Shown one piece after another: positions 4,060 to 63,701 of a stretch of 64,000 nt of DNA; position 1 is the first letter of the stretch; every line of letters starts with the position of its first letter. Under the pieces are notes generated by a model. It saw nothing but the letters and a program-made list of their open reading frames with translations, made no database searches and was not told the DNA's origin. This stretch comes from Podarcis vaucheri (Eukaryota), in NCBI GenBank assembly GCA_965113315.1, contig OZ220367.1; one strand, 5' to 3'. A program made the translations under genes and the position numbers.

Positions 4060-4131
4060 ACGTCTGAATCGGAACCAGCTGCACACTTTGCCAGAGCTCC
4101 TATTCCAGAATAACCAAGCATTGTCTCGGTT
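4060..4131 (+). CDS. SLIT1: SLIT1 coding exon (equivalent to exon 4), LRR
   Basis: ctctgttttcctag / gtaagt; 72 nt; [23 protein letters not shown](L). Confidence 0.95.
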
Positions 4132-8904: not shown

Positions 8905-9240
8905 CAGTGGTGCCTCGCAAGACGAAAATAATCTGTTCCGTGAGTCTCTTCGTCTAGCGGTTTTTTCGTCTTGCGAAGCAACCCTATTAGCGGATTAGCG
9001 CTATTAGCGGTTTAGCGGCTATTAAAGGCTTAGCGGCTTAGCGGCTAAAAGGCTATTAGCGGCTTAGCGGCTTAGAAAAAGGGGGGGAGCAAAAAAAATC
9101 ACAAGACTCGCAAGACGTTTTCGTCTTGCAAAGCAAGCCCATAGGGAAATTCGTCTTGCGAAGCGCATCGAAAAACGGAAAACCCTTTCGTCTAGCGGGT
9201 TTTTTGTCTTGCGAGGCATTCGTCTTGCGGGGCACCACTG
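8905..9240. mobile_element. Tc1/mariner-type MITE, intact ends
   Basis: TA on both sides; 22-bp TIR cagtggtgcc(t/c)cgcaagacgaa with 1 mismatch; internal TTAGCGG tandem array. Confidence 0.9.
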
Positions 9241-16239: not shown

Positions 16240-16377
16240 CAGCCTTTCTCAACCTGTGGGTCCCCAGGTGTTGTTGAACTACAACTCCCATCACCCCTAG
16301 CTAGCAAGGCCAGAGCTCAGGGATGATGGGAGTTGTAGTCCAACAACATCTGGGGACCCACAGGTTGAGAACCGCTG
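16240..16377. mobile_element. hAT-type palindromic MITE nested in a CR1-tail element (~16183-16455)
   Basis: TSD (g/a)tctagtc at 16232-16239 and 16378-16385; ~55-bp inverted arms; degraded relatives near 3945-4020, 6340-6460, 31360-31470, 39935-40075, 43700-43825. Confidence 0.85.
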
Positions 16378-17226: not shown

Positions 17227-17400
17227 GGGAGCAACTTTATTATGAGCCACACCATGGTCCATCTCATTTGGTATTTTCTACACTGACTGGCAGTAGCTCT
17301 CCGGTGTTGCAGGGAGGGGGCTCTCACAGCCCTACCTGGAGGTGCCAGGGATTGAACCTGGGCCCTTCTGCATGCAAGTCAGACACTCTACCACTGAGCA
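17227..17400 (-). mobile_element. tRNA-derived SINE (older family), degraded
   Basis: Minus strand head gctcagtggtagagtgtctgacttgcatgcagaagggcccaggttcaatccctggc with A/B-box-like motifs; related copy at 50101-50290 (+). Confidence 0.65.
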
Positions 17401-19164: not shown

Positions 19165-19241
19165 TGGAGCCCCCAGCCAAGGATCAAACTTGTGACCCCT
19201 GGTTTACAAGACCAGTGCTCTCACCTCTGAGCTATGAAGTC
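19165..19241 (-). pseudogene. tRNA-Thr(TGT) pseudogene/retrocopy ending in genomic CCA
   Basis: Minus strand GACTTCATAGCTCAGAGGTGAGAGCA CTGGT CT TGT AA ACCAG GGGTCACAAGTTTGATCCTTGGCTGGGGGCT CCA; perfect anticodon arm; B box decayed (GTTTGA); acceptor stem mismatched. Confidence 0.8.
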
Positions 19242-25316: not shown

Positions 25317-25774
25317 ATTTTGGATTTTATTTTGGATTTTAAGGGCAGTTTCACACACAAACCGCTGTTTTCATCCACATAAATAGTCCCAGTTGTCTCT
25401 GGGTATGTAGTTGTATGGACAAATGTCATGTGTGTGCAGCCATGTCATCAAGGATATGGCTGACAGCAATTCGTGTAATTGCAGCAGAAGAAGAAATGCA
25501 CGGTATCATGGGAATTGTTGCAGTCACATCTGTGGTCATTCTGATGGATTCCAAGTGATTTTTGGATCCTTGGAATATATCTGTTGTTTGATCCAGGGAA
25601 ACATGGGCAGAACTGGTAGTTACCCCTAAACAGCTGCAGGCTACACAGGTAAGTGCAAATGGGACTTGCTCATTTCCGTTTCAGGCAGATGGGGTAGCTG
25701 AGGATTCTCAGGACCTAAGTGATGAATATATATACCTGTCTTGGAATAACCACCAGATAATATACTTGTTTTGG

Positions 25775-26524
25775 CTTATGAAAATGGTTTACAGATGGTA
25801 CATGACTCCAGTCAAGCTGGCAAAAATTTATCATTTGCCCGATAATAAATGTTGGAAATGTAGAGAGACTGAAGGCACCTTCTACCACCTCTGGTGGACG
25901 TGCCCGAAGATTAAGGCTTTCTGGGAAATGATCTATAATGAAATGAAAAAGGTACTTAAATGTACTTTTCCTAAAAAGCCAGAGGCCTTTCTCTTGGGCA
26001 TTGTCGGCCAATTGGTGTTAAAAAGGGATAGAGCTTTTTTTATGTATGCTACAACAGCAGCAAGAATACTCATCGCGAAGTATTGGAAGACACAAGATCT
26101 ACCCACTCTGGAAGAATGGCAGATGAAAGTGATGGACTATATGACATTGGCTGAGATGACAGGCAGAATCCGTGACCAACGAAAGGAGACGGTGGAAGAA
26201 GATTGGAGAAAATTTAAAAGCTATCTTAAGGACTATTATAAACTTAATGAATGTTAAAGTGTTGTGGTTTTTAGAAATAAAGGGATACAGTGATATAAGG
26301 TCAGAATATAGAGAGGAATAAGATGACAGAGGGTGGAAGTAACAATTGGGAGTTGCTAAAAATTATGGACATTGGGATGCAGAAAGGGGGGGGAAGGGGA
26401 AGTCCAAGAAAAGAGGCTTATGAAAATATGTTATGAAACTATACGTGTATGTTTGTCTTTTTAAGTGTTTGTTCGTTATTTAAAAACTTTGTAAAACCAA
26501 TAAAAATTTTATTTAAAAAAAAAA
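25775..26524 (+). mobile_element. 5'-truncated L1/Tx1-type LINE: ORF2 C-terminus, 3'UTR, poly(A)
   Basis: Open frame to TAA at 26257 with CX2CX8HX4C zinc knuckle (KCWKCRETEGTFYHLWWTC); AATAAA at 26499-26504; A-tail; 20-bp TSD agataatatacttgttttgg (25755-25774, 26525-26544). Confidence 0.9.
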
Positions 26525-34877: not shown

Positions 34878-35103
34878 CAGTGGTACCTCGGGTTACAGAT
34901 GCTTCAGGTTACAGACTCCGCTAACCCAGAAATAGTACCTCAAGTTAAGAACTTTGCTTCAAGATGAGAACAGAAATCATGCTCCGGCGGCGCAGCATCA
35001 GTGGGAGGCCCCATTAGCTAAAGTGGTACCTCAGGTTAAGAACAGTTTCAGGTTAAGAACGGACCTCCAGAACAAATTAAGTTCTTAATCCGAGGTACCA
35101 CTG
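34878..35103. mobile_element. Tc1/mariner MITE, intact ends
   Basis: TA flanks; 18-bp TIR cagtggtacctcgg(g/a)tta with 1 mismatch. Confidence 0.9.
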
Positions 35104-39156: not shown

Positions 39157-39581
39157 CAGGGACGCGGACTTATAAAAAATATTGGGGGGGCCCGGGAAAG
39201 CTCGTGAAATGTAAATGAGCTCATGAATATGCAAATAAGCTCATGAATATGCAAATAAAGTGGCGCCGCCCCCTCGCGAGCGAATAGGGGAGAGCGTGCT
39301 GCTGCCTATTAATCAGCTCCGGAACAGCTGATATGCGGGAAACCTGGGGCTAGAGGCAGAAGCCCCCGCCCCCGGGGATTCCCCTGTTCTTGCGGGGGAC
39401 GGCCGGGGCTCTCCAGCTAGGGCGCGCGGCTGGCTGGCTGGCTGGCTGGGGAGAGAGCAGGTGGGGAGGAGGCGGGGGACGGCGGCAAGGGCGCCCGAGA
39501 TTATTGGGGGGGCTGAGCCCCCCCCAAAAAAATTTTGAGGGGGCTCAAGCCCCCTCAAGCCCCATGGAGTCGGCGCCTATG
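39157..39581. mobile_element. hAT-type MITE with GC-rich core
   Basis: 8-bp TSD tctacact (39149-39156, 39582-39589); imperfect 14-bp TIR cagggacgcggact / agtcggcgcctatg. Confidence 0.8.
39220..39256 (+). promoter_or_regulatory. Two tandem heptamer-octamer (CTCATGA-AT-ATGCAAAT) POU-binding motifs
   Basis: ATGCAAAT at 39229-39236 and 39249-39256, each preceded by CTCATGAAT; function not shown. Confidence 0.5.
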
Positions 39582-40738
39582 TCTACACTGATGTATGTGC
39601 TTCTGGAAGAGGTAAACTCTACTAGTTCCTGTAATATGACTCTGGAGACTGCACAACTCAGAAAGCAGCCCTAGATGAATTATTACAATGACCTTACAAT
39701 TACAGTGACTATTACAATGTAATTAAATCCTTTCCCCCCACAAGTGGTAGGGAGCACCACACAGATGAAAATAAGTCCCAGGCTGCAAGTGCAAAGATAC
39801 CTTCACTGGCTCTGCCTTCAGTGTATCAATATCAAGCCCATTGTGGACTCATGCTAGCCGAAAGCCTGTCATTCCTTGTTCCCTTTCTGAGTCTTAATTC
39901 TGAAAACTTCCCAAGGGCAGTCCAAAAGCCTGCAGCTGGTGTGCAGAATCTTTGGCCCTCCAGCTGTTGCTGAACTGCAACTCTCCACCATCCCTGGCCA
40001 TTGGCTATGCTTTCTGGGGCTGATGGAAGTTGTGGTTTAGCCACAGCTGGAGGACCAAAGGTCCCCCACGCCTGGCCTATGGATTCTTATCAGCCACCAG
40101 AGGCAGAGCTTATAGTTTCCAGATTCCCACCACCAATGTGAGGCCCCTGAATTGCTGAGTTATTAACTTCTTGGTGAGTACCAGGATGGCATTGGGGCGT
40201 TTGTTTCATTTCTGATACATTTTGGATAGAGGGAAAGGAGTTGGACTTGTCCTCAGTGCACACTCATGCGCTGACCATGTTTCCAGCAGGCTGTGCTCAA
40301 AATCTCACAGCTCTGCTCCGTACATAACCATGAATTCCAGAATCTAAACCAGCCTTTGTGGTTCTTGAAATGTGTGTAAATGTTATGGTTGTTTAAAAAT
40401 GCAGTAGATGGTAAATATTTAAACGTGAAGTGTCCCTGGTTCCCCAAAGTGTGTAGAAACTGGTAGCTGAAAGCAGTTCTGCCTCCCTAAACTCAGCAAT
40501 ATGTAGATAAGCAAAGGAGACATGTGTGTTCTGGAGGCAGCGGGAGAATTGAGGTTGGCCCTGAAGACAGGCCTCATTAGAATATTATTTTCGAAGTGAC
40601 AATATATTTGCATGTCTGAAATGGGATGTGAGCATTGGGGGAAAGGTATTGTGCGCCATGTTTTCACTGCAGGGTATTGTAGCAGCTTCGTGAAATGCCT
40701 ACCAGAATATTTTGAGCATTCTTCCATGATCAGTTATG

Positions 40739-55910: not shown

Positions 55911-58841
55911 GGAACCTCTCTTGGATTGGAAGATGGAAAAGACTGATAGAGTTGAGTGTCACCAACATACAGCATGCAGCAGACACAATCCAGGCATGAC
56001 AAACTGGCAGATCCTTCCTCTGTGGGTGCAATATATATGTGCCTCATACCTCCTTATGGTATGGATGGAAGCGGGGAGTCTGGGGAGCAAATTCTGCACT
56101 GCAGGTTCATTATCTCCCCACTGGTGACTGGGCAATGAAGACAGGATTTTCCATGGCATGGCTAAAGGCTGGGCAAGATGGTCTGGAGCAGTAGGAAGCA
56201 ATTACCATCCCGCTGAGCCGAACCCTAATCCCCTCAAACAGCACGAGGGGCTGGCAAGCCAAACACGCCTCAATCAGGTTAAAGTGTGAAGTTGGGATTA
56301 GCCAAGAGAATGAGAGCCTCATAATACCATTGCACCCCCTGCTTGCACCAGGCTCAGCCTGGCCCATAGGGCAGGAGATTAAGTGCTTGGCTTGTCTGCC
56401 TGAGTGGGCTCCCCACTGGGAAAGCTGTGTCCTATGGATGTCAGACAGTTTGGCTTTAGTTACTTGCTGAGTGCTGGCCAGGATCTCGCACTGGGAGGCC
56501 TCGCTTGCTCCCATAATCGAGACACCAATCCCAGCGAGGGATCCCTCCAAGTGGCTCATGTCCAAGGCACACAGGGGAGGAGGGATGGCTGAGGCAAAGA
56601 CAAAAGAGAGGGTGCAATGTTAAGGGTGCAGACTAGCCGGGAAAACTCTCTCGGTGTAATGATTTGTTTAGTGATGGGATGCGACCACAGCTGAAACTGG
56701 AAATTGGGTCAGATTGCCCTGGAGAGGCTGGTGGTCATGCCTGTTTTAAAGGAGTCATTGGGTGAAAGAGATGAGCTAAGCTTTTCTAAACTAAATGCAG
56801 AGGTAATTAAAGGAAATCAGCATGTTTTCTGGACAAAGTGGTTTAAGTCTTTGCACATCACGTTGTATTAGGAAATATAAACAAAAGGGTGACTTGGGGG
56901 TCTGTTGGAATTATTTGCAGTAGAATGGAAGAGATGTCTTGAAACACCCTTGTCCAAACTGAGCATTCCCATCACATGTGGAACCCCCCACCCCCACCCC
57001 TGTTTATTGCCTATTTAACATTGAGCAGTAAAAAGTAACATAAGCACTTTAGTTTTATGAACCTCATATTCTATTTGTGTTGCTATTAAAGGGCATTTAC
57101 GGTAGTTCAAAGTCAGATGAAGAGCCTGGGAGATATTTGCCCTGCTCTGTAGTCCGACCAGAATTTGCATTGCTTGAAACATACTTTGTTGTATGCATAC
57201 TGGTTATGGGGTCCCCTAGTTTTCACTCACTAAGAGATGATCCTTCATAAGGCTGCTTTTCTTGGGGGTTTTGATTTATCTGACTCAGCATAAATGGATG
57301 GCAGGATGGTGCAAGTATTGGTCAAAATGTTCCTCTAAAGCTAGACAAAGCTGTTGCTACAAGCTGTCATTCATCAAGACTGGAGCAATTTGTGTCTGGG
57401 AAACTGGCAGCTTAATGTTCCTTGGAGTTACTGTGATACTGAATGAAAACAGGTCCATACATGTACAAGAGGGAGAGAACATGGTGATTTTCTCCATTAT
57501 TTCCACTAACCTCTAGGGCAGCTGCCTCCCTGAAGAGAGGAGTGTGAATATGAACTCTCCAAAGGCAGGGAGAGTGGAAGGTTACATTACTCCAAACTAT
57601 GCTCTGGCTCAACATCTGTGCAGCAGGTTGCTAGTCCTGTTGATTGGGGACAGACCAGACCATGGAGACGAAAAGAACCAAAAGTGAATAAAAATAGTGA
57701 TAGAATCAGGCACTGTGAAAAGCTGGTGGACTCCAACCAAGTCATTTGTGGTAACAATGTTATAGAAAGATTTGAAGTTCCTAATAATCTCTAATATTCC
57801 CAGATTTTTAATTCTGAGGATGAAGCGATTGGAAAACCTACTTTCAGAAGAACTATGGTTTTAAAAACTTTCAATACGACACAGAATGTTGAGTTGTCTA
57901 GAACTCTGAAAGTCCTCATTAGATGGGAATGTTATTTGTGCTTTGGCATTTTCGCAAGGGCCTGGTTGTTCTAACGGTTTTGTGATCATGCACTCTTTCA
58001 GAGGAGAAATGTTGGCTCCCTGTTCCCAAAGGTTCTTTCCTTAGATTTTCAAGTGCCTCTGGCCAAATGCGCCCAATGGATGTTTTATAGGATTGTGTGA
58101 ATGGGGTCCAGTTCATATACAATGCTAATTCATGATTTATTAGACAATGGTTTATTAAGCCATGGCTTAGTGTTATGTGTGAACCTAGTCCAGCTGCTTC
58201 ATTGATGGTTTAAGGTCACTTGTTAACCAAGATTTGTAGTTTAATCTTAGTTAAATTTACCTTAGTTAAAATTACCCACAGCTTAGTCCTGTATGTGAAC
58301 TTAGACCTCTGTCTTAAATATGGTTAAGGATCTATTGTGTCCCAAAAGCTACAGATCTGCTGTTGAAAAGTGGCAAAAAAATTGAAACTGCTGTTAAAAT
58401 TTAACTGCTGTTAAATTGCTCTTGCTGATGCTTTTAACCATTCTGTGGCATAATAAGCTAAGGCTTAAGTGAAAGCCTGACAGGCACCACAGCTTTAACT
58501 ATGGTTTGTTTTTGTTTTTTAACTATGGTTAATGTTAAACATCACATGTGAACGAGACCTATGAGACCCTAGAAACAATTCCCCTTAGGGAATATATGGG
58601 AATAAGGTTAGCAAACACTTCTCACTAGCTAGTTGTCAAAAATTGCCATTAAAGTCATGGTGGTCCCGGAAGAAATTGAGAAAAGTAATAGTGGAGGCTG
58701 GATTTTCTTTTCTTTTTTAAATTGCCTAGGTAAATAGATCTATATATCAGAGGCACACAGTGTGGTGGGGCAGTGATGCTCACCTCCCAACAGCTGAATT
58801 GTTGTTGCTGCTTACCAGGTGGTGTGGTCCAAACCCTAGAT

Positions 58842-59363
58842 CAGTGTTTCCCAACCGGTGTTCCGCGGCACACTAGTGTGCCGTGAGACACCGGCTGGTG
58901 TGCCGTGGGAGGGAGGCGGGCGAGGCGGGCGGCGAGAGGCGGCGGCGGCGAGGATCCGCGTCGAGCCGGGGGCGGCTCCGCGGTGGTGGTGCCGAGCGGC
59001 GGGGCAGCGCGCGCAAAAGGGAGGAGCGCGAGACAGCGGAGGAGGAGGAGGCCGGCATGTCCGGGCAGCAGCAGCAACAGCAGCAGCAGCAACAACTCCC
59101 GGCGACGGCTCCTCCTCCGCCCGCTATCGCCGCCACCACCACAACAGCCGCCGCCGCCTCAGCTGCCGCCGTCCCTCAGTCCCTCGCTCTGCTGCCTCCT
59201 CCCACCCCGCAAGGGGAAGGGGAAAAACGTTCACTTTTGTGCGTCCCTCCCGGCGTGACGCTGCGCGCTGACGTCACGGGGCGGGGCTTTAATGGTGGTG
59301 TGCCGCGAGATTTTTTTCCGGTAAACAGGTGTGCCGTTGCCCAAAAACGTTTGGGAAACACTG
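58842..59363. mobile_element. hAT/Charlie-type non-autonomous element with CpG-rich internal cargo
   Basis: Perfect 8-bp TSD ccctagat (58834-58841, 59364-59371); perfect 13-bp TIR cagtgtttcccaa; subterminal gtgtgccg repeats. Confidence 0.92.
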
Positions 59364-59844
59364 CCCTAGATTGGCTCCAAAGCAGTAGCACCAGGTTGGT
59401 TCTGCTGATGTGATTGCACCATGTCAGCCTCCTCACTGCCTCACCCCTCCCAGTTGGCAGCAGCAATTGAACTGTCGGAAGGCCCCACCATGGTCTCTGC
59501 TGCTGCTGATACATAGAGATTGGTGAGGGATCCCATCACATGAAAACCCTAGTGCTATTTTTAGCACCTCCTAATAGTAAATTGCCTCTTTATAGCATAC
59601 ACCATTCACATGTGGAATAAACCGAATGAATGAATAGATAAATAAATGTGTCAATCTTTGGAAGTGTTTTGGTCGCCCCCAACATTCACATATTACCAGG
59701 AAGTTGTCAAGCCTCTGATAACCCCACAGTGCCTGGGTTAGAGAGATGTTTCAGAGATGAATTGGAGAGGAATACGAAGATGAACATATTCTCAGCTCTA
59801 AGCCTTTTCATCTCATTCTCCTTAGAAAAGGAGTACAGTCATTA

Positions 59845-60249: not shown

Positions 60250-60477
60250 TACCTCGCATTGCGTTTGCTTCAGGTTGCGTTGCATTTGCTTTCAGGTTGC
60301 GTCCCGCGGCGACCCGGAAGTACTGGAAAGGGTTACTTCTGGGTTTCGCCACTCGCGCACGTGCATGTGCAGAAGCAGAAAATCGCGACCCACACACGTG
60401 CGGACGCAGGTTGCATTCTGCTCGGGTTGCGAACGGGGCTCCAGAACAGATCCTGTTCACAACCAGAGGTACCACTG
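60250..60477. mobile_element. Tc1/mariner MITE (cagtggtacctc family), left end disrupted
   Basis: Right end gaggtaccactg+TA; left starts at acctcg. Confidence 0.75.
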
Positions 60478-60830
60478 TAGTGGGATCTTGGGGGGTGGAC
60501 TAAAGGGAAAGAGGCTGAAGAAAGTTGCTTCCAAAACGCGTCCTCTGAGAGAAACATGTCCCTGTGGGCAAAAGGTGCACAGCCGCTGCCAGTAGTGACA
60601 TGAGGGTCCAATCTAAAGGAGTGTTGGACACTCACTATAAACAGTGGAGGCTTTTTAATGATGCCACGTAGCTGGAGAGGTTGGTTGTTAGCAGAAGTGT
60701 GGCGAAGAAACCAGGATGTCATGCACACTTCCTTTCCTCAATGCTATGTGCCAAGTCTGAGGAGCTGCTGTTCTGTCTCAAAGGTAACAGACTGAAGAGG
60801 TGACATCAGTCGGCAATGAAAGAGCTTCTG

Positions 60831-61722: not shown

Positions 61723-61794
61723 GGACTTGAGTGAGAACCTCCTTCTGGCTGTTCCCAGGAAGGCGTTTCGTGGAGCTACTGATCTCAAGAACCT
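61723..61794 (+). CDS. SLIT1: SLIT1 coding exon (equivalent to exon 5), LRR
   Basis: tcatctgcag / gtgagt; 72 nt; [23 protein letters not shown](L), continues the frame of exon 4. Confidence 0.93.
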
Positions 61795-62230: not shown

Positions 62231-62302
62231 ACAACTGGACAAGAACCACATCAGCTGCATTGAGGAAGGGGCCTTCCGTGCTCTCCGTGGCCTGGAAGTT
62301 TT
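62231..62302 (+). CDS. SLIT1: SLIT1 coding exon (equivalent to exon 6), LRR
   Basis: ctttcatcactcag / gtaagt; 72 nt; [23 protein letters not shown](L). Confidence 0.95.
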
Positions 62303-63629: not shown

Positions 63630-63701
63630 GACTTTGAACAACAACAACATCAGCACCATCCCCATCTCCAGCTTCAACCATATGCCCAAACTGCGCACCT
63701 T
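63630..63701 (+). CDS. SLIT1: SLIT1 coding exon (equivalent to exon 7), LRR
   Basis: cctccttcctgcag / gtgagc; 72 nt; [23 protein letters not shown], then a codon split by the intron. Confidence 0.95.

Follow-up and report, generated by a model that had tools for sequence, protein, structure and literature searches.

Genomic setting and structure of the element

The window, by which we mean the whole 64-kb stretch of DNA that was analysed, contains 72-bp exons of the leucine-rich repeat (LRR) type at 1877-1948, 2375-2446, 4060-4131, 61723-61794, 62231-62302 and 63630-63701. Pfam LRR matches are weak and below cut-off in three of the four exons scanned, and a PDB search for the host gene returned generic LRR matches only. 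We take the host gene to be SLIT1 and the genome to be that of a lacertid-like lizard; the gene name, the exon numbers and the lizard group are our assumptions. The 57.6-kb intron at 4132-61722 carries a mobile element 2,360 bp upstream of the exon at 61723, in agreement with an earlier account made from the DNA letters alone (hereafter the sequence-only reading), which had placed it about 2.4 kb upstream of exon 5.

The element is 522 bp long (58842-59363) and lies between two perfect copies of CCCTAGAT (Table 1). The 8-bp target site duplication (TSD), called perfect in the sequence-only reading, is indeed so. The terminal inverted repeats (TIRs), given the same description, deserve it over 13 of 13 bp but not beyond, as a mismatch at base 14 leaves 15 of 16 positions identical. 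Pairs of TIR and TSD like these are expected by chance about 1e-4 times per 64 kb, and a scan of the window identified two hAT-like pairs, the element itself and one at 16240-16377. The element shows the hAT features of an 8-bp TSD, a short TIR (5-27 bp) and a YARNG start, and CCCTAGAT matches the Buster target consensus nnnTAnnn (PMC3517528). A CTAG target core is common to other copies, as the loose ends from 58836 and from 59370 show. No Pfam family reached the cut-off in any of seven frames of the element (7/7) and no transposase remnant was seen there; an Rfam search returned nothing on it, and no second copy was found within the 64-kb window. By every feature tested, the element is a Buster-type (Charlie-like) hAT MITE. 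The GTGTGCCG subterminal repeats and the left arm are likely transposase-binding sites.

Table 1. Features of the hAT element and the nearest downstream exon
Feature	Position	Strand	Remarks
Left TSD CCCTAGAT	58834..58841	+	nnnTAnnn, Buster type
Left TIR	58842..58857	+	13 bp perfect, 15/16
Left subterminal arm	58851..58909	+	48-bp imperfect palindrome and GTGTGCCG repeats
GC-rich layer, GC 0.84	58910..58954	+	Common to more than one subfamily; loose ends at 58942 and 58954
Inner module, GC 0.74	58955..59138	+	GGA repeat, ATG at 59057, CAG/CAA tract
118-codon frame	59057..59413	+	Runs through CRE, right arm and right TIR; likely no gene
Second GC-rich layer, GC 0.72	59139..59224	+	Missing from variants joining at 59224-59225
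Palindromic CRE TGACGTCA	59269..59276	.	In family-wide right arm
GC box GGGGCGGGG	59278..59286	+	1-bp gap after CRE
Right subterminal arm	59291..59347	+	GTGTGCCG repeats
Right TIR	59348..59363	-	13 bp perfect, 15/16 with left TIR
Right TSD CCCTAGAT	59364..59371	+	Perfect
Host exon 5, 72-bp LRR exon	61723..61794	+	Exon number assumed

Base composition and promoter-like motifs

CpG islands are at least 200 bp long, with GC above 50% and a CpG observed/expected ratio (o/e) above 0.6. The element, with a GC content of 0.69 and a CpG o/e of 1.01 (0.45 and 0.225 in the rest of the window), has the length, GC and CpG o/e of such an island. The sequence-only reading had described it as GC- and CpG-rich DNA in a CpG-depleted intron. 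Its GC content does stand out, but its high CpG o/e is not unique, since an element with TIRs flanked by TA at 8905-9240, in the same intron, has a CpG o/e of 1.4. As a control, this TA-flanked element shows that CpGs are retained in young elements.

The CRE and GC box lie where the sequence-only reading put them, separated by 1 bp, and TGACGTCA occurs once in the whole window. In 5000 dinucleotide shuffles of 58910-59290, the CRE arises in 0.2% and the 9-nt GC box in 5.1%, both motifs having been picked post hoc. The CRE beside the GC box arises in none of the 5000 shuffles, again for motifs picked after being seen.

Insertion age and abundance of the family

Parts of the stretch are contained in 20 of 24 sequencing runs listed, under 8 organism labels, and 14 runs contain at least half of its words. 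Depth and variants were analysed in four runs (X1, X9, X16 and X23), aligned at 85% likeness. X1 and X9 are DNA runs, X23 is RNA-seq and X16 is RNA by guess only; X1 possibly comes from the window's own source and hence is not independent.

Both junctions of the element are present in X1. In X9, a 368-bp contig (depth 168.5) joins 58833 to 59364, skipping 530 bp that correspond to the element plus one TSD, with 8 letters that fit either side; over its 368 letters, the flanks show 10 differences from the window. This is an exact empty site in a related organism, which makes the insertion young or polymorphic, as the sequence-only reading had proposed in calling the element a young non-autonomous hAT. 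Such an insertion makes a clean presence/absence marker.

The family is abundant. Contigs on the element number 4926 in X1 and 6064 in X9, and summed depth at 58960-59035 relative to the flank is 4600-4900x (X1) and 3300-3600x (X9), values that overlapping contigs inflate and that are not copy numbers. The corresponding figure for the ATG bin is 1260-1750x flank across X1 and X9, likewise not a copy number, and for the CAG bin, where repeats are skipped, 100-145x. From this coverage we read a family size of hundreds to a few thousand copies. The sequence-only reading had also held that the family spreads CpG-island-like sequence, and the interior is deeply covered in both X1 and X9. At 58836 the loose ends of 24 contigs are mutually unlike (agreement 0.37). 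As their flanks are unlike each other, the other copies are dispersed, and a tandem array is ruled out on the same grounds. At 58925, 59222 and 59229, the copy in the window has letters other than those of most copies.

Two further junction types occur in X23. Seventeen reads join 59365 to 58836 across one 8-bp spacer, as would a head-to-tail pair or a circle junction. At the loose end at 59370, 54 reads (agreement 0.65) pass the right TSD into what appears to be the TIR of another hAT; it seems that hAT elements insert next to one another at a shared CTAG target.

RNA reads and a predicted exon

In the portion of X23 covered (12% of the raw run), 1021 reads lie on the element, on both strands, and none on its flanks; 84% of the 1021 continue into unlike sequence. 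Nowhere do their starts or ends accumulate as they would at a transcription start, the reads being ordinary RNA-seq reads from other copies. The pattern fits many copies being included in other transcripts.

Read in the host sense direction, the element also contains two pyrimidine-rich acceptors (AG at 59161-62 and at 59178-79) and, at 59329, a weak GT donor. As predicted from these letters, they could define a cryptic frameshifting exon of 166 or 149 nt (59163/59180-59328).

Modular interior

The interior is built in nested modules. Outermost are constant arms, which include the CRE; a middle layer follows, and the core, which carries the ATG, is exchangeable. In a sister variant, 58955-59138 is replaced by other GC-rich sequence, and 15 X23 reads carry the joint from 58954 to 59139; the loose end at 58954 comprises 54 reads with an agreement of 0.93. 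Among the loose ends listed (24 of 295), other GC-rich interiors branch at 58942, 58954, 58996, 59145 and 59224. The sequence-only reading had suggested comparing copies for variable cargo, and interiors do differ between subfamilies, as judged from loose ends and one joint, while within a very large subfamily the interior is uniform.

Depth agrees with this arrangement. Relative to the right arm, well-mapped inner bins (repeat-affected bins excluded) reach 0.64-0.76 in X1 and 0.53-0.74 in X9, and inner bins reach about 0.3 in X23 and 0.01-0.07 in X16. The CRE bin has 1.0-1.07 of the right-arm depth in all four runs (4/4). An interior that is less repeated than the ends, and variable between them, is equally expected of any set of MITE subfamilies. 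One contig from X16 aligns to 58999-59208 with a single difference and 6 gap letters (99% identity), and since X16 carries the same organism label as X9, the module with the ATG and CAG tract exists in the organism that has the empty site.

Indels at 58937, 59127 and 59277 segregate among copies. The 5-bp indel at 59277 shortens the GC box in 80 of 259 X23 reads and in less than 1% of contig depth in X1 and X9. Eight X9 contigs represent a variant with a CCAAT box just before 58996; as a lead only, this variant may have retained a larger part of a promoter from the donor. No long single-copy continuation was found among the loose ends (24 of 295) and contig pieces (24 of some 11,170) listed, from which conserved reads were possibly filtered.

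The ATG frame

The ATG at 59057 and its peptide are as the sequence-only reading wrote them. The frame stops in the flank, at 59413, and the interior is open in all three plus frames. ATG-open runs of at least 78 codons arise in 36% of 5000 shuffles and a Kozak-like GCCRNNATG in 5.2% of 5000, and there is no GTRAG splice donor 3' of the ATG.

Protein searches were made in large databases with two of six frames; a donor contributing untranslated sequence would be invisible at this level. Among 6492 candidates for a relative of the ORF, none reached an E of 1e-3, with a low-complexity query of low sensitivity. Another search gave one match among 2574 (E 4.5), of low complexity, and one minus-strand frame gave none among 8000 candidates at E up to 10. 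In further searches the best E values were 0.19 (below the cut-off) and 0.33, and one search had no usable match. Two matches to long tandem-repeat proteins, which scored by summing weak stretches, were dropped. At the protein level, where low-complexity queries are insensitive, there is no match to a host gene.

Blastn against plasmids gave short GC-rich matches to unrelated bacterial linkers (16 records, 8-18% of the query). Because GC-rich low-complexity DNA also matches such linkers, a resemblance to a 5' untranslated region (UTR) is weak evidence. The apparent protein start is likely incidental, and we infer that GC sequence rich in triplets gives rise to the polyQ/polyA reading from the ATG as a side effect.

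Search for an autonomous partner

Pattern scans found no autonomous partner of the element. Two bacterial matches from these scans (L001 and L002), neither with the TIR, were discarded. A metagenome contig of eukaryote-like DNA (L003:1-579, minus strand) contains the first 45 bp of the element at 39 of 45 identical positions. This end stands behind TCCTGGAT, the contig ends 579 bp in, and no frame exceeds 41 codons. In this single case (n=1), the sequence continues with a GC of 0.36, versus 0.73 in the element. The likeness of this end suggests that the Buster-type family is widely spread and possibly horizontally moved.

Origin of the interior

We somewhat favour the view that the element belongs, as a young copy, to an abundant Buster-type non-autonomous hAT family whose interior came from host CpG-island DNA, was taken up by template switching in an ancestral copy and was amplified en bloc. 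A related autonomous Buster-type transposase would act in trans via the TIRs and the GTGTGCCG repeats. Gap repair after excision would occasionally copy foreign GC-rich DNA into the unconstrained middle, which would build up onion-like layers. In an ancestral copy, template switching would have patched in DNA of the host CpG-island type, and transposase supplied in trans would then have amplified the patched interior en bloc. The intronic copy in the window would most likely be a neutral passenger. A foreign origin of the middle is argued from the AT-rich continuation of the metagenome contig, the CCAAT variant and the rarity of the CRE in shuffles. A stronger version seems doubtful to us. It has host promoter and 5' UTR DNA of CpG-island type being taken up in series by a hAT family of lizards, giving one Pack-hAT at about a thousand copies per genome that seeds CRE/Sp1 mini CpG islands in several related species.

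Since no partner was found, the interior could instead be the autonomous partner's own sequence. The element would then be a deletion derivative or recombinant of autonomous hATs or other repeats, with interior, CRE and GC box native to the transposon, for instance as transposase promoter or UTR. We consider this unlikely, although the segment with the CRE and GC box follows the depth of the right arm in all four runs, the protein searches yielded no host match, and most Anolis non-autonomous hATs treated in PMC3014272 are deletion versions of autonomous ones. Against it stand the several different GC-rich interiors inside the same arms, the one related end that continues AT-rich, and seven element frames devoid of transposase remnants. 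If, by analogy with TcBuster, the palindromic end of the element presumably corresponds to the transposase 5' end, the CRE would lie at the transposase 3' end, which also speaks against a native origin. It is rather improbable that the interior grew within the MITE, templateless, by slippage and repair synthesis of GGC, GGA, CAG and CCG runs. Much of it consists of triplet repeats and echoes itself in direct and inverted orientation, the segregating indels would suit such growth, and so would the chance matches to unrelated GC-rich linkers; but module borders are sharp, whole blocks of 180-300 bp are exchanged, and the stretches with the CRE and CCAAT motifs are non-repetitive. A one-piece capture that took in the promoter of a polyQ/polyA host gene together with its first coding exon, essentially what the sequence-only reading had proposed, strikes us as quite improbable. 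The Kozak-like ATG, the GGA and GGC runs that precede it, the CCAAT variant upstream of 58996 and the rarity of the CRE in shuffles could be cited for it. The CRE and GC box lie 3' of the ATG, in the right arm common to the family, and hence are not the promoter of an exon that opens at that ATG. They also belong to a different module; no GTRAG donor follows; shuffles often give comparable open frames, and none of the three plus frames is interrupted; and the failure to find a protein relative adds weak evidence, given the low-complexity query. The first-exon-plus-promoter reading is unsupported, and template-switched host CpG-island DNA remains the origin that we prefer.

Comparison with known systems

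In TIR and TSD, on which alone it was compared, the element resembles hAT-HT3_AC and hAT-HT3N of Anolis, which are Charlie-related and have the TIR CAGTGRTTCCCAAA (PMC3014272, Table 1). Its TIR is one position off CAGTGRTTCCCAAA, and it shares with them an NTCTAGAN-type 8-bp target and short high-copy non-autonomous members; it differs in its CpG-island-like interior, which the portions of PMC3014272 on hAT-HT3 do not describe. According to the same source, Anolis hobo-N_AC and the "orphan" hAT-N have like ends and family-specific centres derived from genomic DNA and recombination between elements. The element shares the common ends and differing centres, whereas hobo-N elements are 1.3-3.4 kb long, have TAGGCTT TIRs and contain old TE fragments instead of promoter-like GC-rich DNA (PMC3014272).

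Pack-hAT-N8_XT of Xenopus tropicalis is a short hAT with a piece of about 300 bp of the CAPSL 5' UTR, present in 3 copies and transposed afterwards (PMC8277862). The element is likewise a short hAT, and multicopy Pack-TIRs tend to be GC-rich, with high GC in four of five (PMC8277862). In contrast, Pack-hAT-N8_XT has a known parent and 3 copies, whereas the present family has hundreds to thousands by coverage, and the protein searches yielded no parent for it. Plant Pack-MULEs and Pack-TYPE elements are similar in having GC-rich interiors that raise local GC and are less repeated than the ends, but they are defined by an identified gene fragment and belong to another superfamily or kingdom (PMC5861414, PMC8903248; the comparison literature also includes PMC9498476).

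Both ends of one TIR element enclose the internal sequence, whose length is within the Pack-TIR range of 100-5000 bp. By definition, a Pack-TIR has a parental copy that is unique, lies outside TEs and is at least 90% identical (Tan et al. 2021, PMC8277862). The element resembles a Pack-TIR in its variable GC-rich interiors and may be one, but because the definition turns on such a parent it is not filed there. Only four multicopy Pack-TIRs are reported from 100 animal genomes in the sections of Tan et al. concerned, and the lizard row there gives 0 Pack-TIRs and 0 hAT consensus sequences (PMC8277862). With no lizard hAT consensus in it, that survey did not extend to lizard hATs. The literature covered, mostly non-subscription, holds no description of this MITE family or of lizard Pack-hATs; the family may be catalogued in Repbase or Dfam.

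As it stands, the element adds a further young family to the hAT MITEs, which are familiar from lizards. Finding a donor would raise its importance, given how rare multicopy Pack-TIRs are, and serial capture, if true, would exceed the 3-copy animal Pack-hAT by orders of magnitude. A recent, polymorphic, CpG-dense family carrying a CRE and GC box would let filled and empty sites be compared in close relatives as a test of CpG-island methylation and transcription.

Other repeats in the window

The second hAT MITE (16240-16377) is 138 bp long, with SPIN/hAT-N1-like TIRs, TSDs of GTCTAGTC/ATCTAGTC and a CpG o/e of 0.1. The TA-flanked TIR elements at 8905-9240 and 34878-35103 are presumably Tc1/mariner-like. 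Downstream of the Buster-type element by 0.9 kb, a CpG-rich patch (60290-60479) contains CCGGAAG (60314) and two CACGTG motifs (60358 and 60395), and ends in the TIR type of the element at 34878; repeats that contain promoter-like motifs may be frequent in this genome. The sequence at 39250-39620 is CpG-enriched (GC 0.56-0.58) and repeat-like, with no TIR/TSD pair detected. At 25592-26520, a 221-codon frame is followed by a poly-A tail, which we take to be a LINE-1-like 3' end. Partial tRNA matches at 17345-17399 (38.6 bits) and 19177-19234 (36.3 bits) are likely the heads of SINEs.
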